Sequence record: LC739534.1 | Reading direction: 5' to 3' (one strand) | Length of the DNA: 64,000 nucleotides | Source of the DNA: Escherichia phage phiWec181 | Shown here: positions 39,886 to 51,394 of the stretch, piece by piece | Numbering within the stretch: the first letter of the stretch is position 1 | Layout: every line of letters begins with the position of its first letter | Notes under the pieces: generated by a model | What the model was told of the DNA's origin: nothing | What the model saw: only the letters and a program-made list of their open reading frames with translations | Database searches by the model: none | Translations under genes and position numbers: made by a program

Positions 39886-39942
39886 CGGGAAACATTCCCG
39901 CCCTACGTGATAAATAATAATATAAGCGTGATCCGGTGTCAA
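39886..39942 (-). promoter_or_regulatory. promoter + 5'-proximal GC stem-loop cassette (PeSL-like), hairpin class IV
   Basis: Minus strand TTGACA, 17 nt, TATTAT, 10 nt, GGGAATGTTTCCC hairpin, then CDS 39632..39865. Confidence 0.5.
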
Positions 39943-40077
39943 TAGGTAGAATTGTAAAGATTTGATAGTTTGTCTCTTTGTTGTTTTGTTGTTTGATAGA
40001 TGTTAGCTATCAATATATAGCGGGGTCGTCCGGTGATTACCTCCCCCGTTGCCAGTGCCGCCCGTTCAATAAGCATA

Positions 40078-40107
40078 ACAAAAAACAGGACAAAAGCAAG
40101 CCCTGTT
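40078..40107 (-). terminator. rho-independent terminator
   Basis: ACAGGGCTTGCTTTTGTCCTGT hairpin followed by TTTTTTGTT on minus strand after CDS 40117..40320. Confidence 0.55.
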
Positions 40108-40116
40108 TTGTAAAGA

Positions 40117-40320
40117 TTAGATGATCTGCATATCCTCCACGATAATTTCTAATTTCCAAACAAGATGATCTAAGCTCCCTGATAAAAATGATTCCGATAC
40201 ATAACCGCCATCGGACACCGTAGCAAGGATCTCGCCATTTGCTTGCTCTTTGATTTGAACATCCAGGCGGTTAGCCTTTGCTTTGTTCAGGACGGCGATC
40301 AGGCGGTTAGCTGTAGTCAT
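40117..40320 (-). CDS. hypothetical protein (67 aa)
   Basis: SD GAAAGGAAAA upstream; loosely similar to CDS 41063..41299. Confidence 0.5.
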   Translation of the reverse strand: MTTANRLIAVLNKAKANRLDVQIKEQANGEILATVSDGGYVSESFLSGSLDHLVWKLEIIVEDMQII

Positions 40321-40340
40321 GGTGTTTTCCTTTCAGTTGT

Positions 40341-40398
40341 GAGCGGCACCATTGCCGCCCTACGTGATACATCTTACACTATCAGATACATTGTGCAA
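40341..40398 (-). promoter_or_regulatory. PeSL-like cassette, hairpin class I
   Basis: TTGCAC, ~16 nt, TAAGAT, 10 nt, GGCGGCA-ATGG-TGCCGCT hairpin ~20 nt before ATG of CDS 40117..40320. Confidence 0.5.
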
Positions 40399-40404
40399 GC
40401 TATT

Positions 40405-40596
40405 TTAGATCTCGTCACCTATATAATCAGATCTGTTCTTCTCTGTCATACGTTTTAATAATTCTTGCATATCGCTTATAGCTTGCAATGTGTCTTCTTC
40501 CAGGCTTGAATCCACATAGTCAGGATCATTCTTTACCTTGCTATGGTTATGATAGCGCAACGCTGCTAATACCTTTCTAACTTGTTCCACGTTCAT
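40405..40596 (-). CDS. hypothetical protein (63 aa)
   Basis: ORF; weak SD AAGGG. Confidence 0.45.
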   Translation of the reverse strand: MNVEQVRKVLAALRYHNHSKVKNDPDYVDSSLEEDTLQAISDMQELLKRMTEKNRSDYIGDEI

Positions 40597-40605
40597 GATG
40601 TACCC

Positions 40606-40725
40606 TTAAAATAGTGTGCCGATGGAAGATAGCAGGTCACTAATAACCAGGACCAGATCTACTATCACATATCTAATCAGGAAGGGGATTAGCGCCAGCG
40701 TCGCTACTATGATCCCCATTGTCAT
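40606..40725 (-). CDS. small hydrophobic peptide (39 aa)
   Basis: MTMGIIVATLALIPFLIRYVIVDLVLV...; SD GAGAAAGG upstream; not in ORF track. Confidence 0.4.
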   Translation of the reverse strand: MTMGIIVATLALIPFLIRYVIVDLVLVISDLLSSIGTLF

Positions 40726-40736
40726 GATTACCTTTC

Positions 40737-41027
40737 TCATTGTTGGCGGTTTACATAAGCTTTACCGTTTACGGTCATCGGTATGGCCTCAAGGTCTGGA
40801 TCTTCCTTAAGGTCGCGTGCAAGCTCACCGCACCGGACACCCTCGAATCCGTGGTATTCTGTTTCCCCGTTCTTAAAAGTTTTAGCGGCAAGGCATAGGC
40901 GATAATTAACACCGATCCGGTTTACTGCGTTGATATCGGTTAACGTGATCGATTCCGGCAAATCGTTAGCCATTACAGGCGCGTTAATACCAACAACCAG
41001 GGCAACTACTGCGATCATCTTTTTCAT
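40737..41027 (-). CDS. small secreted protein (96 aa) with signal peptide
   Basis: MKKMIAVVALVVGINAPVMA signal-like N-terminus; SD GGAAGAGGA upstream. Confidence 0.5.
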   Translation of the reverse strand: MKKMIAVVALVVGINAPVMANDLPESITLTDINAVNRIGVNYRLCLAAKTFKNGETEYHGFEGVRCGELARDLKEDPDLEAIPMTVNGKAYVNRQQ

Positions 41028-41062
41028 GTGTCTATCCTCTTCCTATTGCGTTTAATGGGGCG

Positions 41063-41299
41063 TTATTGATTGATGTTATGATGAAAGTTATTTTCTTCAA
41101 CGGCTTTTAAAATAAAGGCTGTTACCGCTTTCGTGTCTACTTGTTCGAACGTATCAGAATAAGCCCAATAATAATCATCCCCTACTTTAGGCGGGTAAAC
41201 CTGGACAAGGAGATCGCCACCTGGTTGATCTATAAGCTCAACATGTAAGCCGGATGATTCAGCGGTTTTAACGGCGTTTAATACTGTTGCAATACTCAT
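41063..41299 (-). CDS. hypothetical protein (78 aa)
   Basis: SD GAAAGGAAAAG upstream. Confidence 0.5.
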   Translation of the reverse strand: MSIATVLNAVKTAESSGLHVELIDQPGGDLLVQVYPPKVGDDYYWAYSDTFEQVDTKAVTAFILKAVEENNFHHNINQ

Positions 41300-41318
41300 A
41301 ATCTTTTCCTTTCTAATG

Positions 41319-41334
41319 TGGGGCGTTGCCGCCC
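41319..41334 (-). promoter_or_regulatory. intergenic GC hairpin without adjacent promoter
   Basis: GGGGCG-GCAA-CGCCCC between CDS 41344..41643 and 41063..41299; no -35/-10 next to it. Confidence 0.3.
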
Positions 41335-41343
41335 CTTTGTTGA

Positions 41344-41643
41344 TTAGATCGCTGTTTCCAGTAGTTCGGCTAACGTCTTACCGCCTGATAGTTGGTCTAA
41401 CGTTTGCTCTTCTGACAAGAAATTAGCGGATATTAAACCGACCTGGTTCCCTTTGTGCCAGTTAGCCTGGCGGGTGATTCCATCCTTTAAGGATTTTACC
41501 GCCATTGTGCAACCATCACCAAATGATTCATTTTTATGGTCCATCACTTCATAAGCGCCCAGCTTGCTGCTGTTAGGCACCATTAACGCGAATACATCAC
41601 CAACAACCAGTTTTTCTACGGTAACAATAGCGATAGTTTCCAT
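41344..41643 (-). CDS. hypothetical protein (99 aa)
   Basis: SD TGAGGAAAAC upstream. Confidence 0.5.
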   Translation of the reverse strand: METIAIVTVEKLVVGDVFALMVPNSSKLGAYEVMDHKNESFGDGCTMAVKSLKDGITRQANWHKGNQVGLISANFLSEEQTLDQLSGGKTLAELLETAI

Positions 41644-41660
41644 TTTGTTTTCCTCATTAT

Positions 41661-41718
41661 CGGCGGCACCATTGCCGCCCTACGTGGTAAATATTATCAC
41701 ACTGGCGATCTGTGTCAA
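41661..41718 (-). promoter_or_regulatory. PeSL-like cassette, hairpin class I
   Basis: TTGACA, 16 nt, TAATAT, 10 nt, GGCGGCA-ATGG-TGCCGCC hairpin, then CDS 41344..41643. Confidence 0.5.
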
Positions 41719-41724
41719 TACTTT

Positions 41725-42111
41725 TTATTCAATATAAATCAAATTATCTTCACCAATGTAAGCCGACACGTCCGGCATGAATTTAGCGGCATTTGTTAGG
41801 CGGTTGGCTGTGTTAGTAGTGTATATTTCAGGGCGATCCCAAAATCCTACGCCGTGACCGTTACGGGTAAAATGTAAATCATTCCCGATCTGGTTGGCTG
41901 TAGCGCCGTCGCTCATTGCTTCCGCAATAGCGGCAACGTTAGCATTACAAAATGATGTAACATCGTCCGCGATACGGTCCAGGGCTTGAGAAGAAAAATC
42001 ATAATCGTCTAAGTTATCAATAAAATCACCTTCGTGATCCCTGGCTGATTCAGCAAAAATAAAAACGTCTTTATAACCGTTGATGATTTCGTTAATGATT
42101 TCTGTTTTCAT
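41725..42111 (-). CDS. hypothetical acidic protein (128 aa)
   Basis: SD AAAGAGAGA upstream. Confidence 0.55.
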   Translation of the reverse strand: MKTEIINEIINGYKDVFIFAESARDHEGDFIDNLDDYDFSSQALDRIADDVTSFCNANVAAIAEAMSDGATANQIGNDLHFTRNGHGVGFWDRPEIYTTNTANRLTNAAKFMPDVSAYIGEDNLIYIE

Positions 42112-42125
42112 GTTGTGTCTCTCTT

Positions 42126-42230
42126 TTAACCGATACCGTGGGAAGATAGGATCATATTAGCCATAGTTGCAACCACTCCAACCGATAACGCCAGGCCAAC
42201 TACTGCAACCGTGAAAATTTTCTCTAACAT
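42126..42230 (-). CDS. small hydrophobic peptide (34 aa)
   Basis: MLEKIFTVAVVGLALSVGVVATMANMILSSHGIG; SD GAGGGTAG upstream; C-terminus resembles 40606..40725 peptide; not in ORF track. Confidence 0.4.
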   Translation of the reverse strand: MLEKIFTVAVVGLALSVGVVATMANMILSSHGIG

Positions 42231-42248
42231 GATGCTACCCTCATTAAT

Positions 42249-42310
42249 GGGCGTTGCCTTATTGCCCCGCCCTACGTAATACAGTTTACCCGATTTATAA
42301 TTGTTGTCAA
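42249..42310 (-). promoter_or_regulatory. PeSL-like cassette, hairpin class V
   Basis: TTGACA, 16 nt, TAAACT, 10 nt, GC hairpin GGGCG...CGCCC, then small ORF 42126..42230. Confidence 0.45.
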
Positions 42311-42311
42311 A

Positions 42312-42593
42312 TTATTTTTTCAAGCTTGACCACTCAAAACACGGCGGGATCTCGTTAAAACTTGCACCCTGTAAAGCACATAATTTTTTAGCAATAGCCG
42401 CCGTAACCTGGCGTTGTACGCGCGGATCTGCTACTGATTGGAGAAAGTAGGCGGCTTTATATGTGATCATGCTTTCGCCTGTTTCCTTGTTAACGTGGTG
42501 CACTATTTTAGCCTTATCATCTTTAACCAGGGTGTAACCGGATTCGATGGCCTTGATTGCAACGTCCAATGATATTTTCATGATTTGTCTCAT
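42312..42593 (-). CDS. hypothetical protein (93 aa)
   Basis: ATG only 7 nt after hairpin and without SD; possible short-leader translation. Confidence 0.45.
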   Translation of the reverse strand: MRQIMKISLDVAIKAIESGYTLVKDDKAKIVHHVNKETGESMITYKAAYFLQSVADPRVQRQVTAAIAKKLCALQGASFNEIPPCFEWSSLKK

Positions 42594-42599
42594 CTGATA

Positions 42600-42658
42600 A
42601 GCGGGGCGGTTGTCGCCCCTGTAAAATGAATACTACGCGCTTATTTTGCTGTTGTCAA
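42600..42658 (-). promoter_or_regulatory. PeSL-like cassette, hairpin class III
   Basis: TTGACA, 17 nt, TAGTAT, ~10 nt, GGGGCG-ACAAC-CGCCCC hairpin, then CDS 42312..42593. Confidence 0.5.
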
Positions 42659-42823
42659 CAACGGGCGAAAAAACTTTTTGATCTGGTTTGCTGTTAGGCG
42701 CATATCTGCTTTGAGCGTTGCCAGGCGATAAGCTTTACCCTTGATCAGTTTATGGTGTCCGGTGCCGTTGCCGATGATAACATCGATTTCACACAATACG
42801 CGGGAAGCATCAATCTTTTTCAT
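42641..42823 (-). CDS. hypothetical basic protein (60 aa)
   Basis: SD GAAAGGTAA upstream. Confidence 0.45.
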   Translation of the reverse strand: MKKIDASRVLCEIDVIIGNGTGHHKLIKGKAYRLATLKADMRLTANQIKKFFRPLLTTAK

Positions 42824-42843
42824 GTTGTTACCTTTCGTGTTAT

Positions 42844-42899
42844 GGGGCGCTTGTCGCCCCCTGTCTGATAAAGATAATCCCTTTCGGGATATCTGTCAA
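42844..42899 (-). promoter_or_regulatory. PeSL-like cassette, hairpin class III, with second hairpin in promoter spacer
   Basis: TTGACA, 17 nt (contains ATCCC-GAAA-GGGAT), TATCTT, 10 nt, GGGGCG-ACAAG-CGCCCC. Confidence 0.5.
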
Positions 42900-42905
42900 C
42901 TATTT

Positions 42906-43091
42906 TTATTGTACGGTGTGGCGATCGCTGTATTCAGCGTAAAACTCACATCCATCGTCACGGCTATCAAGTTTAACGATGTACCCGCTATTCCAACGTT
43001 CAACTGATACTACCGGATAATACTTCCCGTTAAGGATATTTTTCACCAGGTCGCCTTTTACCAGTTCTTTCGTTTTCTTGTAAGTAGTCAT
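42906..43091 (-). CDS. hypothetical protein (61 aa)
   Basis: ATG 43091 preceded by AGAAGAGAAAAC; ORF-track start 43172 would lie inside the promoter cassette. Confidence 0.45.
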   Translation of the reverse strand: MTTYKKTKELVKGDLVKNILNGKYYPVVSVERWNSGYIVKLDSRDDGCEFYAEYSDRHTVQ

Positions 43092-43110
43092 GATGTTTTC
43101 TCTTCTGTTT

Positions 43111-43172
43111 TGCGGTGGACCGTTCCGCCGCCCTATGTAATAAACTATACGCGCCAACGTTCCAGGCGTCAA
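43111..43172 (-). promoter_or_regulatory. PeSL-like cassette, hairpin class II
   Basis: TTGACG, 17 nt, TATAGT, 10 nt, GGCGGCGGA-ACGG-TCCACCGC hairpin. Confidence 0.5.
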
Positions 43173-43289
43173 GTATATTTTTAAAATTATTTTCTACAAC
43201 GTAAAACGCCCCAGCATAAGCCAGGGCGCACTAATTAAATCAGGTAGGGGATTGCATTGCCTTACACCTTTTAGGCTGTTAGCTGGCGA

Positions 43290-43517
43290 TTAGTAGCGTA
43301 GGATGTTTACACGCTCATCCCGCCCCAAGATATCTTCATATCTGTTTCCCCTTCCTTCGTACCAGATGATCACGGTGTCAGGATCAAACGGATTGTTTTC
43401 GATAGCCGTTACCTTACAAAAATCATAAAACGGGAACGGATAAACGCCAACCTGTAAACGCGCCCGATCTCCTGGGCGAATGGTAGCGGCACGATCTGCA
43501 ATGACATTGTTATACAT
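43290..43517 (-). CDS. hypothetical protein (75 aa)
   Basis: SD TAAGGGG upstream of ATG 43517. Confidence 0.45.
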   Translation of the reverse strand: MYNNVIADRAATIRPGDRARLQVGVYPFPFYDFCKVTAIENNPFDPDTVIIWYEGRGNRYEDILGRDERVNILRY

Positions 43518-43527
43518 AGTAAGCCCC

Positions 43528-43806
43528 TTAACGATTATAAACATTGTGGATGGCATCGAAAGCAAGCCGACCATAAGCCGCCAAATCGGGATTGATCCAG
43601 GCGTTATCTAACATCGTTTCAAGGACTGTGGAATCATCGTATAAAGCATCATAAAAATCTGCACGGATGATCGTTTCAATATCGTCCGGTGTTAGTTCCC
43701 TGTTAAGGTTGCAAACCGCTAAAACGTCCACCAATAATTTCCAATCTTGCAAATTAGTGGTTAATACTGTTTTCATTTCTTCGGTTGTGAGTTTAACGAT
43801 GGTCAT
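43528..43806 (-). CDS. hypothetical acidic protein (92 aa)
   Basis: SD AGAGAGATAA upstream. Confidence 0.5.
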   Translation of the reverse strand: MTIVKLTTEEMKTVLTTNLQDWKLLVDVLAVCNLNRELTPDDIETIIRADFYDALYDDSTVLETMLDNAWINPDLAAYGRLAFDAIHNVYNR

Positions 43807-43823
43807 GATTTTATCTCTCTGTT

Positions 43824-43882
43824 AGGCGGGGCGCTTGTCGCCCCTATGTGATACACTTTATCAGATTGGTTGGGCTTGTCAA
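43824..43882 (-). promoter_or_regulatory. PeSL-like cassette, hairpin class III
   Basis: TTGACA, 17 nt, TAnnnT -10, GGGGCG-ACAAG-CGCCCC hairpin, then CDS 43528..43806. Confidence 0.5.
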
Positions 43883-43883
43883 A

Positions 43884-43994
43884 CTATTTTTTCTTTTTCT
43901 TTGCTTCCAACCGTCTAAGGTTACGGCTTGACTTATTGCGCAAGGCGCTTAGATCGTCGTACCCTTTCCATGCTTGCATATCTTTCGGATTCAT
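43884..43994 (-). CDS. small basic protein (36 aa)
   Basis: MNPKDMQAWKGYDDL...KKKKK; SD TAAGGGGGG upstream of ATG 43994. Confidence 0.4.
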   Translation of the reverse strand: MNPKDMQAWKGYDDLSALRNKSSRNLRRLEAKKKKK

Positions 43995-44004
43995 GTTAGC
44001 CCCC

Positions 44005-44211
44005 TTAACGCGTTGCGTAAATAATATGACTTGCCGGACTACTGCAAACCAGGTTAAGCGGCTTGCTGTTATATTGCATCTTGTCGGCTTGTTTGCTTGC
44101 TGCGATGATTCCATCTATTACACGTTGCAAACTAACCTTTACCGCCTTTTTTGCCAACCGTTGACGCTTTACCAGTGCCTGGATCTTTTTCTTGTCTGCG
44201 TTGCTTAACAT
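44005..44211 (-). CDS. hypothetical basic protein (68 aa)
   Basis: SD TAAGGGCG upstream. Confidence 0.45.
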   Translation of the reverse strand: MLSNADKKKIQALVKRQRLAKKAVKVSLQRVIDGIIAASKQADKMQYNSKPLNLVCSSPASHIIYATR

Positions 44212-44220
44212 GGTGCGCCC

Positions 44221-44400
44221 TTACTTGTTAGCCGGATTGTATGCCAGGATCGCGCCGCTTGCTTTCACGCTTTCATCTTCATAGTTGCGCAGATCGTTTT
44301 CTGTAAGATTGAGCGCGATCACTTCCTCGATCTCAATGCCAGTGGCAAGGGCGATCTCTTTAATGATGTTTGATGATCTGATAACGTTTACTGTTTTCAT
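44221..44400 (-). CDS. hypothetical protein (59 aa)
   Basis: SD AAGGTG upstream of ATG 44400. Confidence 0.45.
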   Translation of the reverse strand: MKTVNVIRSSNIIKEIALATGIEIEEVIALNLTENDLRNYEDESVKASGAILAYNPANK

Positions 44401-44410
44401 GGTGTGCACC

Positions 44411-44530
44411 TTATAAGATGATTGATAAGATAGTGATAACGAAAGCGATAACACCAACGGCGATCGTAGTCTTACGCCCTTCGGATACTGCCGGATTCTC
44501 TACCGTGTATTCTACTGTGTATTTGTTCAT
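44411..44530 (-). CDS. small hydrophobic peptide (39 aa)
   Basis: MNKYTVEYTVENPAVSEGRKTTIAVGVIAFVITILSIIL; SD AGAGGATAA upstream; not in ORF track. Confidence 0.4.
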   Translation of the reverse strand: MNKYTVEYTVENPAVSEGRKTTIAVGVIAFVITILSIIL

Positions 44531-44552
44531 TGTGTTATCCTCTCGCTTGCTT

Positions 44553-44610
44553 TGAGAACTATTCCCGCCGCCCTATGAATTAAATATACACTATCCCAAA
44601 ATGATTGCAA
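44553..44610 (-). promoter_or_regulatory. PeSL-like cassette, hairpin class IV (degenerate stem)
   Basis: TTGCAA -35, TAnnnT -10, GGCGGCGGGAATAGTTCTC region with weaker pairing. Confidence 0.4.
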
Positions 44611-44629
44611 GCCTTTTTCTAAATTATTT

Positions 44630-44914
44630 TTATGCAGTAAACAGACCATCATTTACAACGGCGGCGATGATCTCCCGTGCCATTGATTCAGGGAACGGGG
44701 CGCTATAGTCCTGGCTTGTCTCGTCGCTGTCTGTTACCCAATGATAAGCCAACGAGTAAAAGCCTTTACTCCCTGTTTTCAGTGAAACGATGATCACTCG
44801 GTTAAGTCCATCGGTAAACGTTGCCGTTAATGTGTTATCATCTTGCGTCATGTTGGACAAGTAAGCGGCATCATTAACCAGGGAAAACAGTAGCACCGTG
44901 TTAGCTTTAACCAT
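44630..44914 (-). CDS. hypothetical protein (94 aa)
   Basis: SD GAGGAT upstream of ATG 44914, immediately after hairpin. Confidence 0.5.
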   Translation of the reverse strand: MVKANTVLLFSLVNDAAYLSNMTQDDNTLTATFTDGLNRVIIVSLKTGSKGFYSLAYHWVTDSDETSQDYSAPFPESMAREIIAAVVNDGLFTA

Positions 44915-44932
44915 GATTTGATCCTCAAACGG

Positions 44933-44990
44933 GCGCGGCACCATTGCCGCCCTACGTAATACACTTTACCTTATTTCTTCCAAAAAGCAA
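44933..44990 (-). promoter_or_regulatory. PeSL-like cassette, hairpin class I
   Basis: TTGCTT, ~17 nt, TAAAGT, 10 nt, GGCGGCA-ATGG-TGCCGCGC hairpin; -35 overlaps 3' end of upstream CDS. Confidence 0.45.
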
Positions 44991-45171: not shown

Positions 45172-45192
45172 AATATTTACCTTTTTGTATGG

Positions 45193-45253
45193 TGGGGGGA
45201 ACTATTCCCCGCCCTGATGTAATACAGTTTAACAGATCCGGTTATAGTGTCAA
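45193..45253 (-). promoter_or_regulatory. PeSL-like cassette, hairpin class IV
   Basis: TTGACA, TAnnnT -10, GGGGAA-TAG-TTCCCC hairpin, then CDS 44971..45171. Confidence 0.5.
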
Positions 45254-45469: not shown

Positions 45470-45493
45470 TAAGAAAGGGCGCTATTTGCGCCC
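45470..45493 (-). terminator. rho-independent terminator
   Basis: GGGCGC-AAATA-GCGCCC hairpin followed by TTTCTTAT on minus strand. Confidence 0.5.
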
Positions 45494-45503
45494 TTGATTT
45501 GTT

Positions 45504-45650: not shown

Positions 45651-45672
45651 GATGTTTCCTCTTTTTAGTTGT

Positions 45673-45731
45673 GAGCGGCACCATTGCCGCCCTACGTGTT
45701 TTAATTTACTTTATTGTTTGATGCCTGTCAA
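45673..45731 (-). promoter_or_regulatory. PeSL-like cassette, hairpin class I
   Basis: TTGACA, TAnnnT -10, GGCGGCA-ATGG-TGCCGCT hairpin, then small ORF 45504..45650. Confidence 0.5.
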
Positions 45732-46102: not shown

Positions 46103-46121
46103 GGTGTCTCTCTTCTGTTGT

Positions 46122-46179
46122 GAGCGGCACCATTGCCGCCCTATGTGTTACATCTTACCGGATTTTTAAAACTTGTCAA
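46122..46179 (-). promoter_or_regulatory. PeSL-like cassette, hairpin class I
   Basis: TTGACA, TAAGAT -10, GGCGGCA-ATGG-TGCCGCT hairpin, then CDS 45749..46102. Confidence 0.5.
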
Positions 46180-46401
46180 TCATTTTTCTACTATCATTTG
46201 ATAACCTGTTTCAAGGTTAGTAAACACCGTGATCCCGTCCTGGCGTTCACTCATAAGCAAGCAAGGCGCTAACATCCTTCCTACTTCCTTGCACTCGTTA
46301 TAAGCGGCGGTAATGTCTCCCGCTGCTTTGTCTTCTGTGGTGAATGTATCGTTTACGTAAACTTTACCAGCGACAACGGCGACAATAGCAAAAGTGATCA
46401 T
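46180..46401 (-). CDS. hypothetical protein (73 aa) with hydrophobic N-terminus
   Basis: SD AAAGAGGAAAAC upstream of ATG 46401; ORF-track start 46473 lacks SD. Confidence 0.45.
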   Translation of the reverse strand: MITFAIVAVVAGKVYVNDTFTTEDKAAGDITAAYNECKEVGRMLAPCLLMSERQDGITVFTNLETGYQMIVEK

Positions 46402-46479
46402 GATGTTTTCCTCTTTGTGTTTTTCGTTTTGATTAGTTGATAATACAGCAATTCGCAGATTAGTCTTTAGCAATTCATG

Positions 46480-46698
46480 CTATTTACTCACAACAGTATC
46501 GAAAACAAATTTTTCTTTGTTGTCGAAGCTAACATATCCGATTCGACCACGCAAGCCGCCAGTAGTGCCGTATTCGTAACCATCAAGGCCTTTAACCTTC
46601 CAATCCGTACCCATTAAAACCGCATTATATTTCTGACCAACTACAAACGCGCCACCAGTTGATTCAATGCAAACAACTTTAATTTTACGGATTGCCAT
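46480..46698 (-). CDS. hypothetical protein (72 aa)
   Basis: SD AAAGAGAGAAAG upstream. Confidence 0.5.
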   Translation of the reverse strand: MAIRKIKVVCIESTGGAFVVGQKYNAVLMGTDWKVKGLDGYEYGTTGGLRGRIGYVSFDNKEKFVFDTVVSK

Positions 46699-46766
46699 TT
46701 TCTTTCTCTCTTTGTGGTGATTGGTTTCTCTTCTCTATAGCGCCCATTATAAGGCGCTATAACGAA

Positions 46767-46934
46767 AAGTCAACGATTATTTTTTACGGCTTAAGGTGCC
46801 CAAGTTATCAGCGTGACGCAGACCAGGGAAGATCCAAGCGCCGGATTCATCTTTTACAGGTGCCTTAACACTTGCGCCCAGGTTGGCGGCGTTAACTTTA
46901 CGTGCTACGTTGCGAGCGGCTTCACGGGTAGTAA
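46767..46934 (-). CDS. small protein (~55 aa)
   Basis: MITFTTREAARNVARKVNAANLGA...; SD AGAGGAAAAC upstream; not in ORF track. Confidence 0.4.
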
Positions 46935-46957
46935 AAGTAATCATGATGTTTTCCTCT

Positions 46958-47020
46958 TCTCTTTGTTAGGCGGTGGACCATTCCGCCGCCTTGATGTAAT
47001 ACAGTTTACTCTATTTTTAT
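46958..47020 (-). promoter_or_regulatory. PeSL-like cassette, hairpin class II
   Basis: TTGCAA, 16 nt, TAAACT, ~11 nt, GGCGGCGGA-ATGG-TCCACCGCC hairpin. Confidence 0.5.
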
Positions 47021-47165
47021 TTCTTTGCAACTACTTTTATATTTTCTTTCTTTGCCTCTTCCACCTGGTCCGCCCACTGCTTACCCCACGTTTGAGCGTT
47101 ATAGTGATATTGACAAAGAGCAACACCACGTTTTAAACCAGCGATAGACTTTTTACCACATTGAC
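47007..47165 (-). CDS. small Cys-containing protein (52 aa)
   Basis: MKTCQCGKKSIAGLKRGVALCQYHY...; SD TAAGGGA upstream; overlaps -35 of downstream cassette; not in ORF track. Confidence 0.4.
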
Positions 47166-47186
47166 AAGTTTTCATTTTGTGATCCC

Positions 47187-47399
47187 TTAGTTGATGATAG
47201 TCAGTGTAAAATTATAATCACCATTCTTATATAACACCATATTACCGAAGGTGCCGACTCGACGCATATCCATACGGATACCTATAACATCTTTAACGTC
47301 TTTAATGTTTTTAACGCCCGTGATATCTTTATTAAAATATTCCTCGTCTGAAAATAAAACTTGACTTGCATTTTTTAACAGTGTGCGGATATTAGCCAT
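47187..47399 (-). CDS. hypothetical protein (70 aa)
   Basis: Purine-rich AGAAGAGAGA upstream. Confidence 0.5.
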   Translation of the reverse strand: MANIRTLLKNASQVLFSDEEYFNKDITGVKNIKDVKDVIGIRMDMRRVGTFGNMVLYKNGDYNFTLTIIN

Positions 47400-47422
47400 C
47401 GTGATAATCTCTCTTCTGTTGT

Positions 47423-47480
47423 GAGCGGCACCATTGCCGCCCTACGTAATACAGTTTACTCTTTTTCTTTCCGGTGTCAA
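47423..47480 (-). promoter_or_regulatory. PeSL-like cassette, hairpin class I
   Basis: TTGACA, 16 nt, TAAACT, 10 nt, GGCGGCA-ATGG-TGCCGCT hairpin, then CDS 47187..47399. Confidence 0.5.
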
Positions 47481-47488
47481 CAATCTTT

Positions 47489-47716
47489 TTAGATTAATTC
47501 GTCCAGGCATAACAGGCGATCAACGTTGAGATCGGTCAGGCTGATGGTTGGCACCTGATAAGATTCGATGTACTCGACGCTTGCATATTCCCCAAAGTTA
47601 GCAATAGCCCACTTATTCAAGATCTCACATACATCATTAATCTTTTTGTTTGTTACAACTGCAATAACCTGGGAAGTGCCAACGGTGCCGGATACGCGAA
47701 CAATATTGATAGCCAT
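47489..47716 (-). CDS. hypothetical protein (75 aa)
   Basis: SD AGAAGAGAGAAAA upstream. Confidence 0.5.
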   Translation of the reverse strand: MAINIVRVSGTVGTSQVIAVVTNKKINDVCEILNKWAIANFGEYASVEYIESYQVPTISLTDLNVDRLLCLDELI

Positions 47717-47735
47717 GATTTTTCTCTCTTCTGTT

Positions 47736-47794
47736 AGGCGGGGCGCTTGTCGCCCCTATGTGATACATCTTACACTAATTTAAAACTTTGTCAA
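47736..47794 (-). promoter_or_regulatory. PeSL-like cassette, hairpin class III
   Basis: TTGACA, TAAGAT -10, GGGGCG-ACAAG-CGCCCC hairpin, then CDS 47489..47716. Confidence 0.5.
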
Positions 47795-47795
47795 A

Positions 47796-47876
47796 TTATT
47801 TTCTATTTCTTCCGTAATAGCCCAATTTATGATCTAAGCTAAAACGTTTTGTGAGATAGGTCGAACGATGTTTCAT
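47796..47876 (-). CDS. tiny basic peptide (26 aa), speculative
   Basis: MKHRSTYLTKRFSLDHKLGYYGRNRK; SD AAAGGAGAC upstream; may be spurious. Confidence 0.25.
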   Translation of the reverse strand: MKHRSTYLTKRFSLDHKLGYYGRNRK

Positions 47877-47889
47877 TTTTATGTCTCCT

Positions 47890-48129
47890 TTACATTCCAA
47901 CCATAGCGGCGCGGATCGCGGTAGTGCTATACTTGAAACCGTCTGGAGTTTTATCTTGTCCAGTCTGTTCCAGAAAGAGCATCATATCACGCGCCGCATC
48001 GTTACGGTTAGAATTATAACTAATAAATTCTTTCGCGGTGCGGTATAATGATTCATCGTTATTAATCCAAAGGCTTACATTCCAATGAGTTTTGTTTTTG
48101 TGACCTAAGAACATTTTTGATTTAGCCAT
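47890..48129 (-). CDS. hypothetical protein (79 aa)
   Basis: SD AAAAAGAGA upstream. Confidence 0.5.
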   Translation of the reverse strand: MAKSKMFLGHKNKTHWNVSLWINNDESLYRTAKEFISYNSNRNDAARDMMLFLEQTGQDKTPDGFKYSTTAIRAAMVGM

Positions 48130-48150
48130 GATGTTAATCTCTTTTTCAGT

Positions 48151-48212
48151 GAGGCGGGAACTATTCCCGCGCCCTATGTAATACAGTTTACTCTTTTTAT
48201 TCGTGCTGTCAA
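48151..48212 (-). promoter_or_regulatory. PeSL-like cassette, hairpin class IV
   Basis: TTGACA, TAAACT -10, GCGGGAA-TAG-TTCCCGC hairpin, then CDS 47890..48129. Confidence 0.5.
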
Positions 48213-48218
48213 TGCTTT

Positions 48219-48572
48219 TTATAAATCTTTTTTACGTTTTACATCGCTTGCATGACTGTATACAGCGATCCCATTATCACGACAAAAACGGGTAAGGTAT
48301 GATCCGCGTGAAAACTCTTTCCCTTCCAGGTCAACAACCTTGCTAAATTCTTCCAGGGCAACGGTATCAAAATGATCACCATAACCATATTGAAACGGCA
48401 CGTTAACAACTTCAATCAATTTACCGCCGATCTCAACGTCCACGCTTAAAGAAAAATATGTGTTACCGTAGGACTGTTGAAACCAGCGACGGGCGCTAAT
48501 GTGAACGGCTTCAATCTCACCAATTTTAAATTGAGTGTTACCCAGGATCGCAACGTTGATATTTTTAGCCAT
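48219..48572 (-). CDS. hypothetical protein (117 aa)
   Basis: SD AAAGAGAGAAAA upstream. Confidence 0.5.
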   Translation of the reverse strand: MAKNINVAILGNTQFKIGEIEAVHISARRWFQQSYGNTYFSLSVDVEIGGKLIEVVNVPFQYGYGDHFDTVALEEFSKVVDLEGKEFSRGSYLTRFCRDNGIAVYSHASDVKRKKDL

Positions 48573-48597
48573 GATTTTTTCTCTCTTTTTGGTTAGT

Positions 48598-48649
48598 GGG
48601 AAGTGTTCCCGATAAAAGTTATTATGCTTATACTATCGTTTTTTGTCAA
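48598..48649 (-). promoter_or_regulatory. PeSL-like cassette, hairpin class IV
   Basis: TTGACA, 17 nt, CATAAT, 10 nt, GGGAAC-ACT-TCCC hairpin, then CDS 48219..48572. Confidence 0.45.
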
Positions 48650-48668
48650 TAGTATAAGACTAAAACTT

Positions 48669-48848
48669 TTAACGATAATCATCGTAGGCTTTATTAACCT
48701 GGCGAATATAACATTCGAAAGCGAGATCAATAGAATCATATTCCCGCACATAATCCCCGTAAGAAACTACATACACACCTTTTTGATCCTCAAACGTCAT
48801 GATGATAGAATCCAGGCCGATGATTTCAGTTTTAGCGATGATAGTCAT
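48669..48848 (-). CDS. hypothetical protein (59 aa)
   Basis: MTIIAKTEIIGLDSIIMTFEDQKGVYVVSYGDYV...; SD AAAAAGGT upstream; not in ORF track. Confidence 0.45.
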   Translation of the reverse strand: MTIIAKTEIIGLDSIIMTFEDQKGVYVVSYGDYVREYDSIDLAFECYIRQVNKAYDDYR

Positions 48849-48867
48849 AATAATAACCTTTTTATTG

Positions 48868-48926
48868 TTGGCGGCACCATTGCCGCCCTACGTGATAAAC
48901 TATACCAGAATTTTAAACAGTGTCAA
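48868..48926 (-). promoter_or_regulatory. PeSL-like cassette, hairpin class I
   Basis: TTGACA, TAnnnT -10, GGCGGCA-ATGG-TGCCGCC hairpin, then CDS 48669..48848. Confidence 0.5.
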
Positions 48927-48936
48927 ACGTTTTTTC

Positions 48937-49182
48937 TTAGTTTGCGAAATATGGCGCGGCGGCTGATGCCGTTAATCTCCAAGTGATTTGGCTATCGATC
49001 AAGTATTCTTCATTCTTGATCCGCACGGTATCAATCGAGAAGTTACTGAAAGGCTTGCTCTTGATTTTACGAACAACCGTTACACGACGGTTATTTTTCA
49101 TCTCTTTTAACTGAATCCAGGCGTAACCTTTTTCATTGACAAATATTTCATTGTGATTGGTGATAGATGATAAGTGTTTCAT
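48937..49182 (-). CDS. hypothetical protein (81 aa)
   Basis: SD AGAAGAGAGAAAA upstream. Confidence 0.5.
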   Translation of the reverse strand: MKHLSSITNHNEIFVNEKGYAWIQLKEMKNNRRVTVVRKIKSKPFSNFSIDTVRIKNEEYLIDSQITWRLTASAAAPYFAN

Positions 49183-49203
49183 GATTTTTCTCTCTTCTGT
49201 TTT

Positions 49204-49265
49204 GAGCGGTGGACCATTCCGCCGCCCTATGTGTTACATCTTACTACTTTTTTAAACATTGTCAA
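49204..49265 (-). promoter_or_regulatory. PeSL-like cassette, hairpin class II
   Basis: TTGACA, TAAGAT -10, GGCGGCGGA-ATGG-TCCACCGC hairpin, then CDS 48937..49182. Confidence 0.5.
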
Positions 49266-49273
49266 GGATATTT

Positions 49274-49555
49274 TTAACTATATGATCCACATCGTTCGCA
49301 GTAGTGATCATCGTCGTCATCTGCTACCTGGCTGATAAAATGATCTACCTTTGCTTTCAAATTATTATAATTGCTTTCTACTTCCTGTAGTCGTCGTTGG
49401 TAGTATTCCAGGGCTTGCACATAGGCCATTTGTTCGGTTTTAGCTTGCATAGCTAAATTCATGCCACGCGTTTCATCGTATAACCAATAACCATCATTAC
49501 ATTCACTAATAGATAGTGTAGGGCTTAGTTTTTCGTGACGGATAACCTTGCTCAT
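49274..49555 (-). CDS. hypothetical protein (93 aa), coiled-coil-like with C-terminal CxxC
   Basis: SD TAAGGGG upstream; ends ...HYCERCGSYS. Confidence 0.5.
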   Translation of the reverse strand: MSKVIRHEKLSPTLSISECNDGYWLYDETRGMNLAMQAKTEQMAYVQALEYYQRRLQEVESNYNNLKAKVDHFISQVADDDDDHYCERCGSYS

Positions 49556-49565
49556 AGTGTGCCCC

Positions 49566-49676
49566 TTACTTCAAAATGATTGTTGTGATAACTGCTACGG
49601 TGATCCAGAATGGAACAACTAAGATAATAGCGTTAATCGTTCCAACTGTCAAACTATTTTCTTTCTTGATCATCAT
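49566..49676 (-). CDS. small hydrophobic peptide (36 aa)
   Basis: MMIKKENSLTVGTINAIILVVPFWITVAVITTIILK; SD AAGGAAAAC upstream; in frame with track ORF 49566..49799, whose N-terminal extension is rejected. Confidence 0.4.
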   Translation of the reverse strand: MMIKKENSLTVGTINAIILVVPFWITVAVITTIILK

Positions 49677-49683
49677 GTTTTCC

Positions 49684-49767
49684 TTACAGTGTCCAAAGAA
49701 TGATTTCAAGTGCAGCACGGAAACCAGGAATAAAATTGATTGCAAAAAACAGGGAAGTAGTAAACAT
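49684..49767 (-). CDS. small hydrophobic peptide (27 aa)
   Basis: MFTTSLFFAINFIPGFRAALEIILWTL; SD GAAAGGATAG upstream; not in ORF track. Confidence 0.35.
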   Translation of the reverse strand: MFTTSLFFAINFIPGFRAALEIILWTL

Positions 49768-49786
49768 TTTTCTATCCTTTCAGTTG

Positions 49787-49845
49787 TGAGCGGCACCATT
49801 GCCGCCTGATGAGTTAACTATAAGGGATCACGTTTTACCTGTCAA
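49787..49845 (-). promoter_or_regulatory. PeSL-like cassette, hairpin class I
   Basis: TTGACA, TAnnnT -10, GGCGGCA-ATGG-TGCCGCT hairpin, then the two small hydrophobic peptide ORFs. Confidence 0.5.
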
Positions 49846-50399
49846 CCTAAATCATCAAAATAAAGATAATTTTTTTCGGCTTCTTTCTTCTCTTCCTGTG
49901 ATGCCTCAAAGACTGGGAGAAAGTGATCAAAGGCGACGCACTCAACCGCTTGATCGTCTTCCTCTTCCTGGTCTTCCTCCTGGGCTATGGCTGCAATTTT
50001 GGCTAATTTCCTTTCAGCCTGGATCAGCTTACCATCTAAAACGCTTTTAGCGGTGCTGTACGCCGTCCAAGTGATGCGCTTACTTTCCAGCGCGGCATCA
50101 AGCGCCGCTATCTTGCTGGGGTATTCATCCAGGACACGAAAAGCCGGATCTACCTTGTACAGCGGATTATCTTTCGCGCCGTCGCTATCATCTGCGGCGC
50201 TTGCAATGTCAGCGTTACCATTCGCCAGCCAACCAGGGCGATCGCTGCGTGTTTTGGTATTCCCATGACTACGCGCCGATCTGTTGCCTACTTGCTCGCC
50301 ACTATAGCCAGGAGCATGATCGATCATGTCGTCCGGTATAATGCGCGGATCATTAACGTCATGTTTTACCCAGGACTGGATCACATATTCGCGCCCCAT
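49842..50399 (-). CDS. hypothetical protein (185 aa), acidic C-terminus
   Basis: SD AAAAGGGGTG upstream. Confidence 0.55.
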   Translation of the reverse strand: MGREYVIQSWVKHDVNDPRIIPDDMIDHAPGYSGEQVGNRSARSHGNTKTRSDRPGWLANGNADIASAADDSDGAKDNPLYKVDPAFRVLDEYPSKIAALDAALESKRITWTAYSTAKSVLDGKLIQAERKLAKIAAIAQEEDQEEEDDQAVECVAFDHFLPVFEASQEEKKEAEKNYLYFDDLG

Positions 50400-50659
50400 T
50401 ATACACCCCTTTTAACAATCATTTCACACACAAGAAATAAGCTGGCGGAATCACGGCAAGGATAGAAAGATGTACGATAATCTCTCACCCCTGCTTTTAT
50501 GATCTCCGTGGTTTTACCTGATAGCACATTGTAAATAGTGTAACTTGTCGGACTGTTTTTATATACCTTGCCAGGGTAGATCATAACATAACGAGCAAGG
50601 TTATAAAATTCCTCGTTACGAAAGGCTATGATCTTCCCGCATACCTTAAGAAAGTGCAC
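50399..50659 (-). CDS. hypothetical protein (86 aa), GTG start
   Basis: GTG preceded by TAAGGGGGG at 6 nt; start overlaps downstream gene stop. Confidence 0.45.
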   Translation of the reverse strand: MHFLKVCGKIIAFRNEEFYNLARYVMIYPGKVYKNSPTSYTIYNVLSGKTTEIIKAGVRDYRTSFYPCRDSASLFLVCEMIVKRGV

Positions 50660-50669
50660 GTTAGCCCCC

Positions 50670-50942
50670 TTACAGCAAAAAGTTTACTTGTCTTGCTGTT
50701 AATGTAGTATCAACCATTTTCGGGCTTTTATAATTGACAAAACGCGCGGTTTTTTCAATAGCGAAGCCGAGATAATCTTGTTTGTTGAAATTACATTCTT
50801 TCTTAAATGTTTCCCGTGCAATGGCGATCGCTGCGTCCAGGGATAAACGCCCGTCAATATTGATATTTGCGAAAGATCCGCCACCGCTCATAGGTTTACC
50901 AGTGGTGCCCGTTACGATCATTGTTGCGCTATATGATGCCAT
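50670..50942 (-). CDS. hypothetical protein (90 aa)
   Basis: ATG 50942 preceded by AAGAGAGATTATC; ORF-track start 50978 would lie inside the hairpin cassette. Confidence 0.5.
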   Translation of the reverse strand: MASYSATMIVTGTTGKPMSGGGSFANINIDGRLSLDAAIAIARETFKKECNFNKQDYLGFAIEKTARFVNYKSPKMVDTTLTARQVNFLL

Positions 50943-50964
50943 GATGATAATCTCTCTTAGTTGT

Positions 50965-51026
50965 GAGCGGTGGACCATTCCGCCGCTCTACGTGATACAT
51001 CTTATCAGGTTGTTGCCTGTTGTCAA
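50965..51026 (-). promoter_or_regulatory. PeSL-like cassette, hairpin class II
   Basis: TTGACA, TAAGAT -10, AGCGGCGGA-ATGG-TCCACCGCT hairpin, then CDS 50670..50942. Confidence 0.5.
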
Positions 51027-51032
51027 TACTTT

Positions 51033-51230
51033 TTATTCAAGCCCTACGATATGTAAGACACGGCGATTAGCAATAGCGTGCTGGTCTTCTGTTATAACGC
51101 CCATTTCTACCAGTGAATCAAGAAAGGAAAGCACCGTGATATATTCGTCATCGGGTACACTCATTTCATTAGTACCGTTTACCACTACGTTGATTTGTCC
51201 TGCTTTCGCTACAATGTGCAATGTTGCCAT
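51033..51230 (-). CDS. hypothetical protein (65 aa)
   Basis: SD CTGGAG upstream; long GC-rich leader. Confidence 0.5.
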   Translation of the reverse strand: MATLHIVAKAGQINVVVNGTNEMSVPDDEYITVLSFLDSLVEMGVITEDQHAIANRRVLHIVGLE

Positions 51231-51365
51231 GATCTTAACTCCAGGTGATGAATGATGTTTTTTGTTGGTTGACGGTGGATTATGGAGATCCTCACCTTTG
51301 CCCGTCCTGCATTGCGCCCTCCTGTTGTTTATTGTCGTTGTGCCTCGCCCCCCTCGACAAGATTA

Positions 51366-51394
51366 ATACTACGCTACCAGGTGCGGAACGTCAA
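51366..51394 (-). promoter_or_regulatory. sigma70-type promoter with long GC-rich leader
   Basis: Minus strand TTGACG, 17-nt spacer, TAGTAT; ~130-nt leader before CDS 51033..51230. Confidence 0.45.

Follow-up and report, generated by a model that had tools for sequence, protein, structure and literature searches.

Why should nearly every gap between the small genes of a coliphage carry the same kind of hairpin, set just past a promoter? The question is raised by a 64,000-nucleotide (nt) stretch of Escherichia phage phiWec181 (LC739534.1; hereafter the window), in which a first-pass annotation made from the sequence alone had marked at least 22 cassettes of promoter plus 5′ hairpin on the minus strand. 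The array is real, and its excess over chance is overwhelming. All of the elements described are present: a print of every TTGAC site shows the module directly, anchoring on the −10 hexamer yields 26 promoter modules of the sigma70 type on the minus strand between 39046 and 51394, and 22 of them have a hairpin. The best explanation, to which we assign a probability of about 60%, is that the modules are early promoters of host type, each transcript opening with a stem-loop that would protect its 5′ end. What we observe is the anatomy of the modules, its excess over chance, the fixed register, the sense-strand bias, the persistence of a hairpin while classes are exchanged, and indels bounded by cassettes; that the promoters are active and early, where exactly they start and that the hairpin stabilises is what we infer.

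The build of the modules is highly regular (Table 1). TTGACA serves as the −35 hexamer in 18 of the 26, the spacer measures 16 nt in 16 modules and 17 nt in the other 10, and the −10 hexamer follows TAnnnT, most commonly as TAAGAT, TAAACT, TATAGT or TAAAGT. An A-run of at least four residues, resembling an UP tract, lies 5′ of the −35 in 22 modules. Directly 3′ of the −10 stands a conserved block, G/T-T-A-T-C-A-C-R-T-A-G, which continues as G-G-C-G-G in the 16-nt logo drawn from 69 unique cassettes, compiled from eight loci of related phages. The A-tract, the TTGACA-like −35, the spacer, the −10 and the block of about 10 nt had all been listed in the first-pass annotation. In most copies the stem then starts 11–12 nt past the −10, as measured in a hand-anchored structural table. 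The hairpin is strong in 21 modules (predicted folding free energy, ΔG, −10.3 to −16.6 kcal/mol), decayed in one (c44588), weak in two (c48626, c51371) and missing from two (c46751, c39096). From its end to the ATG there are mostly 17–23 nt, inside the range of 15–25 nt given earlier, and from the end of the −10 to the ATG there are 45–58 nt. On the other side, the −35 usually lies 0–19 nt past the preceding stop codon, and the distance to the upstream stop codon runs over a full range of −20 to +174 nt. Most of the gaps of 77–99 nt are thus filled by the cassette alone. Some 39–40 small genes are served by the 26 modules, at one to four genes per module, and cassette and following gene are always co-oriented, even in the divergent arrays of phage WPEC6. 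Among the gaps with a promoter, 22 of 26 contain a hairpin (21 strong, 1 decayed), compared with one non-terminator hairpin in the 13 gaps that lack a promoter. The lower edge of the array lies about 800 nt below the limit of 39886 that was first proposed.

Could such an arrangement arise by chance? In 15 kb we count 22 promoter-like sites with at least 5 of 6 matches at the −35, as against 4.9 ± 2.2 in 100 dinucleotide shuffles, a 4.5-fold excess; 17 promoter sites with an in-register hairpin (ΔG ≤ −9) are found in the same 15 kb, as against 0.24 ± 0.45 in the shuffles. By these criteria the other 49 kb of the window hold three promoter-plus-hairpin modules on both strands taken together. A strict regular expression gives 15 matches, all on the minus strand from 39919 to 49243, and one unrelated match elsewhere in the 64 kb. 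The array region is 100% identical to Escherichia phage phiWec186 (LC739535.1; Phapecoctavirus, Stephanstirmvirinae; 154.5 kb), and when the whole of that 154.5-kb genome (160 kb searched) was scanned with a covariance model, R1, based on 20 class-A copies, 19 matches were obtained, every one on the minus strand at 39563–51004. Rfam contains no match at gathering thresholds, and at E ≤ 1 only two chance matches, to a microRNA and an L2 leader; the window has no tRNAs. None of 5,426 complete E. coli genomes has a cassette match, so the cassette is not derived from the host or from a prophage. One isolated cassette-like module lies outside the window on the plus strand of the phiWec186 record (15885–15940, locus L005), with TTGACA, a 16-nt spacer, TAAGAT and the hairpin GCGGGGAGTGGTTCCCCGC; it is directly 5′ of a TerC-like gene and is missed by the covariance model at E ≤ 1.

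If the modules are promoters, where would their transcripts begin? In E. coli, start sites are typically chosen at a purine (+1) preceded by a pyrimidine (−1) at the usual distance from the −10. Of the 69 unique cassettes, 37 have A and 27 have G at position 8 past the −10; its 5′ neighbour is C in 56 of them and its 3′ neighbour T in 59. This pyrimidine/purine pattern leads us to predict +1 at the purine 8 nt past the −10. With such a start, 0–3 unpaired nt would precede the stem, and in variants with G at +1 two additional outer pairs form. The fixed distance between hairpin and −10 would put the structure in roughly the first 25 nt of the predicted mRNA, in agreement with the earlier proposal that it occupies the first transcribed nucleotides. 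We folded the first 40 nt of 20 predicted 5′ ends: the stem starts at nt 1–6 in all of them and at nt 1–5 in 19, the minimum free energy is −11 to −16.6 in 19, and the z-scores are mostly −2 to −4.4. Past the stem, the leader in these predicted folds is purine-rich and unpaired, which leaves the Shine-Dalgarno (SD) sequence free.

That the element works as transcribed RNA, and not as DNA or as a terminator, is suggested by four results. Folding is more favourable for the sense than for the antisense strand in 57 of the 69 unique copies, and the helices contain 39 G·U pairs that would be A·C mismatches on the opposite strand. In a covariance-model alignment of 85 matches, 95.5% of cells pair, and changes on both sides of a pair occur in 23 cells, versus 7.3 in shuffles; none of 500 shuffles reaches this number, and slid controls collapse. 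At one of the paired positions, 36 sequences have G·U and 24 have G-C. The hairpins, with stems of 6–10 bp, fall into at least five stem/loop classes, and 15 of 24 orthologous gene groups have more than one hairpin sequence between phages; in several groups the classes number three or four and are unrelated to one another, all variants being stable. Finally, the 8 nt past the stem include at most one T in 46 of 63 unique copies, as expected from the claim that a U-run is lacking. From the missing U-run and the behaviour of the sense strand it follows that a 5′ stabiliser or regulatory handle is likelier than a terminator, and on this point, too, the sequence tests side with the first-pass annotation. 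Plain MAFFT alignments gave RNAalifold no consensus structure, stems of unequal length having been misaligned; for this reason per-sequence folding, the hand-anchored table and the covariance-model alignment were used instead.

What might a hairpin at the very 5′ end achieve? The locus would be the early region of a phAPEC8-like coliphage, transcribed by host RNA polymerase. Its modules look like strong sigma70 promoters, and each gap of about 80–90 nt would constitute a self-contained expression cassette, made up of UP-like tract, −35, −10, hairpin, SD and ATG, in which the hairpin extends from about +1/+4 to +25 and is followed by an unstructured, purine-rich leader with the SD, the ATG lying about 50 nt past the −10. 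Upon DNA entry the E. coli sigma70 holoenzyme would fire all of these promoters, and every primary transcript would start with a stable stem-loop after 0–3 unpaired nt. Single-stranded 5′ termini are required by RppH as well as by the 5′ sensor of RNase E, and this is the accepted explanation for the stabilisation of the ompA and papA mRNAs by 5′ structure (PMC3997798). The phage stem-loop would deny both of them such an end, and expression of many short mRNAs would thereby be stabilised and standardised, unrelated short genes each gaining a uniform, protected and translatable 5′ end. Few terminators lie between the modules, so read-through transcripts would carry internal hairpins, and these could protect downstream segments after cleavage. 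The stabilising stem-loops of ompA and papA (Emory, Bouvet and Belasco 1992, as cited in PMC3997798), which act in the same host, likewise combine a stable hairpin a few nt from the 5′ end with an accessible ribosome-binding site. They belong to single host genes with mapped 5′ ends, whereas the array presents an exchangeable module on about 22 phage transcripts whose 5′ end is a predicted one.

No new kind of mechanism comes to light in the array. Should the start sites lie where predicted, a group of phages would systematically fit its early mRNAs with a 5′ stem-loop, and a trick by which the host stabilises mRNA would have become a reusable part of a mobile expression cassette. An early regulon would also be defined for widely used therapeutic coliphages (phAPEC8-, phi92- and rV5-like), and the cassettes could serve as a natural library of strong promoter, 5′-hairpin and ribosome-binding-site parts for E. 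coli engineering.

A number of observations weigh against a protective 5′ stem-loop. The covariation is modest, with double changes in only 3 of 8 model pairs and in an alignment fitted to the structure. One hairpin class has a C·A mismatch that equals G·U on the opposite strand, and 11 of the 69 copies fold better in antisense. Four promoters are without a strong hairpin (two weak, two none), and one hairpin is without a promoter. If transcription began at position 6 or 7 past the −10, 4–5 nt would be left unpaired and protection would be weaker. In the literature searched for Phapecoctavirus, Stephanstirmvirinae and Vequintavirinae we found no transcriptome, start-site, promoter-activity, timing or half-life data. 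The strongest residual doubt stems from the 11-nt block and the outer stem CACRTAGGGCGG, which are more conserved than a generic hairpin needs; such over-conservation might be due to a specific partner, or simply to concerted evolution, with recombination between the cassettes.

A specific partner is the premise of one rival account, which we think unlikely, namely that the hairpin, perhaps together with the CACRTAG leader, is a handle through which a phage or host RNA-binding protein switches about 22 early mRNAs jointly, by translational repression, targeted decay or antitermination (compare T4 RegA/RegB and lambda N-nut). The conservation of leader block and outer stem goes far beyond pairing needs, most classes have in common an apical AAU(G/A)GU-like motif, the order of block and hairpin is reminiscent of boxA-boxB, and the phage must have an early-to-middle switch, of which none is known. 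Yet the loops vary by class (AUGG, UAG, UGG, ACAAG, AUAAGG), and the classes swap freely at orthologous genes, which would be unexpected for a sequence-specific site. The block, moreover, is unlike boxA (CGCTCTTA), the array has few terminators for antitermination to overcome, and Rfam offers no match. Somewhat less credible still is the idea that the hairpins work mainly inside long read-through transcripts, as barriers to 3′-5′ exonucleases or as caps 3′ of RNase E cuts, their nearness to the start site being a by-product of compact gaps. A register to the −10 that is fixed within 1–2 nt would be needless for a barrier, the distance to the upstream stop codon varies from −20 to +174 nt, and the hairpin almost never occurs without a promoter; all of this argues against it, even though most modules have no terminator between them, so that nested read-through is expected, one promoter-less hairpin does lie between two genes, and the AU-rich promoter RNA just 5′ would be a plausible RNase E site. 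Such a role is compatible with 5′ protection and need not exclude it.

Nor do we find much to recommend an element that acts as DNA, whether as a palindromic operator over +1, through which a phage repressor would end early transcription, or as the target of a recombination protein. Half-site sequence, arm length (6–10 bp) and centre spacing (3–6 nt) all differ among classes, and G·T pairs and greater stability of sense over antisense are meaningless for duplex DNA. Repressor operators typically cover the start site, as this element would, the DNA sequence CACRTAGGGCGG shows strong conservation, the authors of the promoter-early stem-loop (PeSL) work on T4-type phages proposed a DNA-binding recombination factor for G-rich stem-loops, and some indel junctions fall inside cassettes; against this last point, breakpoint enrichment in cassettes is modest, at 19 of 72 alignment ends versus 11.4 expected (p ~0.015), in comparisons that are non-independent. 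PeSL stem-loops terminated transcription in reporter assays, and a terminator or attenuator that limits transcription coming in from upstream cassettes, or antisense transcription on the plus strand, has to be weighed here as well. A simple scan scored two hairpins as terminator-like on the plus strand, and the promoter-less hairpin at 41320–41335 has a plus-strand T-run. We nevertheless hold this to be very improbable: the sense U-run is missing from the 46 of 63 copies noted above, the plus-strand sequence past the stem (CCTAYGTR) is weakly T-rich, no plus-strand gene or promoter is directed into the array, and true T-run terminators exist separately from the cassette hairpins, at five sites of the array (Table 1). 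Hardly any credence can be given to the repeat as a phage-specific promoter, the reading that underlies the phAPEC8 record JX561091. There the −35/−10 is annotated as "host dependent promoter (MEME)", and the hairpin 20-mer just downstream (e.g. RTAGGGCGGCAATGGTGCCG) carries the label "putative promoter determined with PHIRE"; 10 such labels occur in the two pieces examined. PHIRE merely reports over-represented 20-mers. In the 69 unique cassettes the 20-mer starts about 8 nt past a sigma70-type −10 and ends about 20 nt before the ATG, wedged between the two with no room for a second promoter; the covariance model finds no copy of it in the remaining 140 kb of the genome, structural genes included, and its variable part preserves pairing, not sequence. 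The PHIRE label implies that the repeat has already been noticed, but read as a promoter. The element is identical, the 20-mer covering the end of the leader and most of the hairpin, and the interpretation alone differs: its position, pairing and strand bias speak for a transcribed hairpin past a host-type promoter. In the literature searched, no paper was found that describes the repeat as a 5′ stem-loop, and the database annotation, in which the phAPEC8 hairpins are labelled phage promoters, would be corrected.

Beyond protection of single transcripts, a bolder extension deserves mention, though we consider it rather doubtful. The shared 5′ hairpin might mark about 22 early transcripts as one post-transcriptional regulon, and the unit of promoter, hairpin and SD might be a portable, integron-like carrier of single anti-host genes among rV5-like, phi92-like and phAPEC8-like phages. 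In one version, the hairpin would exempt phage mRNAs from a phage-triggered acceleration of 5′-end-dependent decay of host mRNA; in another, one phage or host protein would bind the hairpin and so time early shut-off.

Several known kinds of repeat or RNA element were considered and rejected for the cassette. An intrinsic (Rho-independent) terminator would have a U-run directly after the hairpin, where 46 of 63 copies have at most one T in 8 nt. A nut site of the lambda type is contradicted by the leader GTATCACRTAG, which is unlike boxA, by loops that differ between classes and by the empty Rfam search. RNase III sites need about 20 bp or more of duplex, and stems of 6–10 bp are too short for processing of the T7 early type. 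The "spacers" of a CRISPR-like array would here be 300–500 nt long and contain genes. Integron attC sites do not fit units that each have their own promoter and hairpins that are too short, with no integron integrase adjacent. Repetitive extragenic palindromic (REP) elements or miniature inverted-repeat transposable elements (MITEs) are discounted since terminal repeats and target duplications are missing and the host has none of these cassettes. For CsrA sites, most of the loops lack GGA.

How widespread is the array? The same architecture is seen in ESCO13, Schickermooser, phAPEC8 and phiWec179 (all Phapecoctavirus) and in phi92 (Justusliebigvirus). In the unclassified phage WPEC6 the cassettes track genes on both strands of a divergent array, and FV3 (Vequintavirus, rV5-like) has a smaller number of them. 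By sequence comparison the array is conserved across two phage subfamilies. Scans of a phage database and of IMG/VR confine the motif to phAPEC8-, phi92- and rV5-like genomes; the canonical-cassette scan of IMG/VR gave 12 stretches on 7 contigs, five of them 137–153 kb long, and no further lineage. Four records named 'Campylobacter phage' A150, A110a, A142 and A13b (MG065639, MG065689, MG065662, MG065677; 141–146 kb) have the cassette at 75–88% identity. Their likeness to phi92- or rV5-like coliphages makes it likely that the records are mislabelled or contaminated.

Coverage against relatives is patchy (49–72%), and some differences are bounded by cassettes. phiWec179 is without window positions 42276–42616; the junctions lie in the start-site block of c42288 and in the hairpin of c42635, and a hybrid cassette remains. 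Schickermooser has one additional cassette and gene at the site of c41696. In phAPEC8 (L004 5729), the hairpin GAGCGGCGGAATGGTTTCCCGCTC, which divides into GAGCGGCGGAATGG and TTTCCCGCTC, is chimeric: its left arm is of one class and its right arm of another, and it is less stable (−12.4). Such a hairpin fits a crossover within the loop. The repeated cassettes of about 100 nt would supply homology for recombination, by which single small genes could be added, deleted or swapped along with their expression signals, as in T4-type PeSLs.

The resemblance to PeSLs, which the first-pass annotation had pointed out, holds as an analogy only. As described for the T4-type phages RB49/phi1, PST and nt-1 (Arbiol et al. 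2010, PMC2839356; Comeau et al. 2014, PMC4122927), a PeSL is a composite cassette that measures about 100 nt and combines an AT-rich tract and a strong sigma70 promoter with a G/C stem-loop and SD/ATG. PeSLs occupy ORFan-rich hyperplastic regions, where they recombine mutually and form mini-circles. The stem-loops, which lie 5′ of the promoter in PST and nt-1 and at five variable positions in RB49 and phi1, had terminator activity (PMC2839356; PMC4122927). Both systems have a sigma70-like early promoter with an AT-rich upstream tract, and both cassettes run up to the SD and ATG of a small ORFan within a variable region. The present cassettes, too, may serve as recombination linkers: two clean cases of cassette-bounded single-gene indels and a loop-chimeric hairpin are seen, while alignment ends fall in cassettes only modestly more often than expected. 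Composition and ORFan context bear the comparison out, and some recombination behaviour may do so as well. Position and terminator role of the stem-loop, lineage and sequence do not: here the stem-loop has one fixed position inside the transcript, 11–12 nt past the −10 and without a U-run, whereas that of PeSLs is variable or upstream, the lineages (Stephanstirmvirinae and Vequintavirinae) are not T4-like, and the sequences are unrelated. By analogy, we regard the array as a functional counterpart of T4-type PeSLs, probably in part a PeSL-like shuffling linker, and not as a member of the family; its stem-loop most likely has a different job. It would make a second, independent case of cassette-mediated shuffling of small ORFans, outside the T4-like phages.

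Two further systems invite comparison. The host-takeover module of Bacillus phage SPO1, as Stewart and colleagues reportedly described it in 1998, is a terminal cluster of about two dozen small early genes in many short operons with strong host-type promoters and SDs. The likeness lies in the terminal cluster of small early genes, each short operon having its own host-type promoter; host and lineage are different, and we know of no conserved start-proximal hairpin described for the SPO1 module. Early promoters of phage T5 such as PN25 are said (Kammerer and colleagues, 1986) to be very strong sigma70 promoters in which conserved sequence past +1 affects output. The downstream regions of T5 are A/T-rich and unstructured, in contrast to the GC hairpin of the array.

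Table 1. Promoter modules of the array and other hairpins within it, in window coordinates. Module entries give −35, spacer length, −10 and hairpin; numbers in brackets are predicted ΔG values (kcal/mol).
Feature	Position	Strand	Description
c51371, first promoter	51231..51394	-	TTGACG, 17 nt, TAGTAT; weak hairpin (−6.3), long leader; Schickermooser orthologue with canonical hairpin
c51004	50943..51026	-	TTGACA, 16 nt, TAAGAT; hairpin 50963-50991 GTAGAGCGGCGGAATGGTCCACCGCTCAC (−16.4); ATG 50942
c49822	49768..49845	-	TTGACA, 17 nt, TATAGT; hairpin 49780-49809 (−11.8); unannotated 27-aa open reading frame from 49767
c49243	49183..49265	-	TTGACA, 16 nt, TAAGAT; hairpin 49204-49227 GGGCGGCGGAATGGTCCACCGCTC (−15.0)
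c48904	48849..48926	-	TTGACA, 16 nt, TATAGT; hairpin 48867-48891 (−14.4)
c48626	48573..48649	-	TTGACA, 17 nt, CATAAT; short weak hairpin GGGAACACTTCCC (−5.5) at usual offset
c48190	48130..48212	-	TTGACA, 16 nt, TAAACT; hairpin 48151-48174 GGGCGCGGGAATAGTTCCCGCCTC (−14.4)
c47772	47717..47794	-	TTGACA, 16 nt, TAAGAT; hairpin 47740-47756 GGGGCGACAAGCGCCCC (−12.7)
c47458	47400..47480	-	TTGACA, 16 nt, TAAACT; hairpin 47421-47445 GTAGGGCGGCAATGGTGCCGCTCAC (−14.9)
c47008	46945..47030	-	TTGCAA, 16 nt, TAAACT; hairpin 46968-46991 AGGCGGCGGAATGGTCCACCGCCT (−15.8)
c46751	46699..46773	-	TTGACT, 16 nt, TATAAT; without 5′ hairpin
c46157	46103..46179	-	TTGACA, 16 nt, TAAGAT; hairpin 46122-46141 GGGCGGCAATGGTGCCGCTC (−14.4)
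c45708	45651..45731	-	TTGACA, 17 nt, TAAATT; hairpin 45671-45695 (−14.9)
c45231	45172..45253	-	TTGACA, 16 nt, TAAACT; hairpin 45194-45214 GGGCGGGGAATAGTTCCCCCC (−11.7)
c44968	44915..44990	-	TTGCTT, 16 nt, TAAAGT; hairpin 44933-44952 (−14.2); ATG 44914
c44588	44531..44610	-	TTGCAA, 16 nt, TATATT; decayed hairpin, left arm GGGCGGCGGGAATAGTT retained, right arm gone (−5.1)
c43860	43807..43882	-	TTGACA, 16 nt, TAAAGT; hairpin 43828-43844 GGGGCGACAAGCGCCCC (−12.7)
c43149	43092..43172	-	TTGACG, 17 nt, TATAGT; hairpin 43112-43131 (−11.3); terminator 43206-43229 upstream
c42876	42824..42899	-	TTGACA, 17 nt, TATCTT; hairpin 42844-42860 GGGGCGACAAGCGCCCC (−12.7)
c42635	42582..42658	-	TTGACA, 17 nt, TAGTAT; hairpin 42603-42619 GGGGCGACAACCGCCCC; one end of 342-nt module missing in phiWec179
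c42288	42231..42310	-	TTGACA, 16 nt, TAAACT; hairpin 42249-42272 GGGCGGGGCAATAAGGCAACGCCC (−14.9); other end of phiWec179 indel
c41696	41644..41718	-	TTGACA, 16 nt, TAATAT; hairpin 41662-41679 (−14.2); Schickermooser insertion site
c40376	40321..40398	-	TTGCAC, 16 nt, TAAGAT; hairpin 40339-40363 (−14.9); top covariance-model score, 67.7 bits
c39919	39866..39942	-	TTGACA, 17 nt, TATTAT; hairpin 39883-39903 GGGCGGGAATGTTTCCCGTCT (−13.0, G·U pairs)
c39607, below the range first annotated	39554..39630	-	TTGCTT, 17 nt, TATAGT; divergent hairpin 39569-39595 (−10.3)
c39096, last promoter	39046..39119	-	TTGACA, 17 nt, TATATT; without hairpin
Terminator-like hairpin within array	45475..45495		T-run on both strands
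Terminator-like hairpin, T-run	43206..43229	-	5′ of promoter c43149; PeSL-type order (stem-loop, then promoter)
Terminator-like hairpin, T-run	40082..40109	-	follows coding sequence 40117-40320
Terminator-like hairpin	39156..39176	-	AAGGGCGC-ACTA-AGCGCCCTT; follows coding sequence 39185-39553
Terminator-like hairpin, T-run	38590..38612	-	closes array; follows coding sequence 38626-39045
Promoter-less GC hairpin	41320..41335		GGGGCGGCAACGCCCC, between two genes; no U-run in gene sense; T-run on plus strand

One of the two modules without a hairpin, c46751, has an inverted repeat, AGCGCC / GGCGCT, around the −10 itself (46746–46773), with TTATAAT as the loop, in place of the downstream hairpin.

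What do the cassettes drive? Every gene of the array region is read from the minus strand and has been annotated as encoding a hypothetical protein. Thirty-nine small open reading frames (ORFs) match 37 different PHROGs, every one of them function-unknown; one small ORF matches the family of T7 gp1.1, an early protein. The annotated starts of 44630–44944, 50670–50978 and 42312–42593 fall inside a cassette, in its hairpin or leader, and the cassette register suggests that the real starts are 44914, 50942 and 42581. Tiny hydrophobic ORFs of 27–44 aa lie behind cassettes or are translationally coupled (49687–49767, ~49575–49685, 42126–42230 and 40606–40740), one of them being MFTTSLFFAINFIPGFRAALEIILWTL; those at 49.6–49.8 kb and 40606–40740 are unannotated in the phiWec186 record.

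The array begins at a divergent control region at about 51.4–52.5 kb and ends at the terminator 38590–38612. Upstream of it, from 52.6 to 58 kb on the minus strand, the genes are longer and closely spaced. A NADAR-domain protein, two paralogous CapR-domain or HNH-like endonucleases and an AAA ATPase are encoded at 52592–53119, 53663–54679 and 54717–55856 (minus strand) and at 58247–59200 (plus strand); these neighbours look like accessory or anti-defence genes. A search near the array for an Srd-like or other RNase-modulating protein found only the NADAR protein, the CapR-domain endonucleases, the AAA ATPase and a weak goF-like match. The last is one of two adjacent paralogues (phrog_3710) at 33701–34213 and 34226–34744 on the minus strand, and it weakly matches the T4 goF 'mRNA metabolism modulator' family (E = 7e-6). 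This match may be relevant to mRNA fate, which is far from proven.

Below the array, 37081–38626 comprises 1.5 kb without an annotated gene, at 37% GC, and parts of it are about 80% identical to the right-end non-coding region and right terminal repeat of phi92. This interval probably contains the physical end, or the terminal repeat, of the phiWec186 genome, although the GenBank record has been opened elsewhere. In phi92 the equivalent array (gp225–gp248) runs toward the right direct terminal repeat, from which it follows that the array is a terminal block of small genes. LC739535 ends at window position 58668, after which the window goes on with record positions 149–5480, at a 148-nt offset; the window therefore spans the record junction (58668/58669). 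Farther away, at 23854–24534 on the minus strand, this lytic myovirus genome encodes a serine recombinase/DNA invertase (Pfam Resolvase, E = 6e-17).

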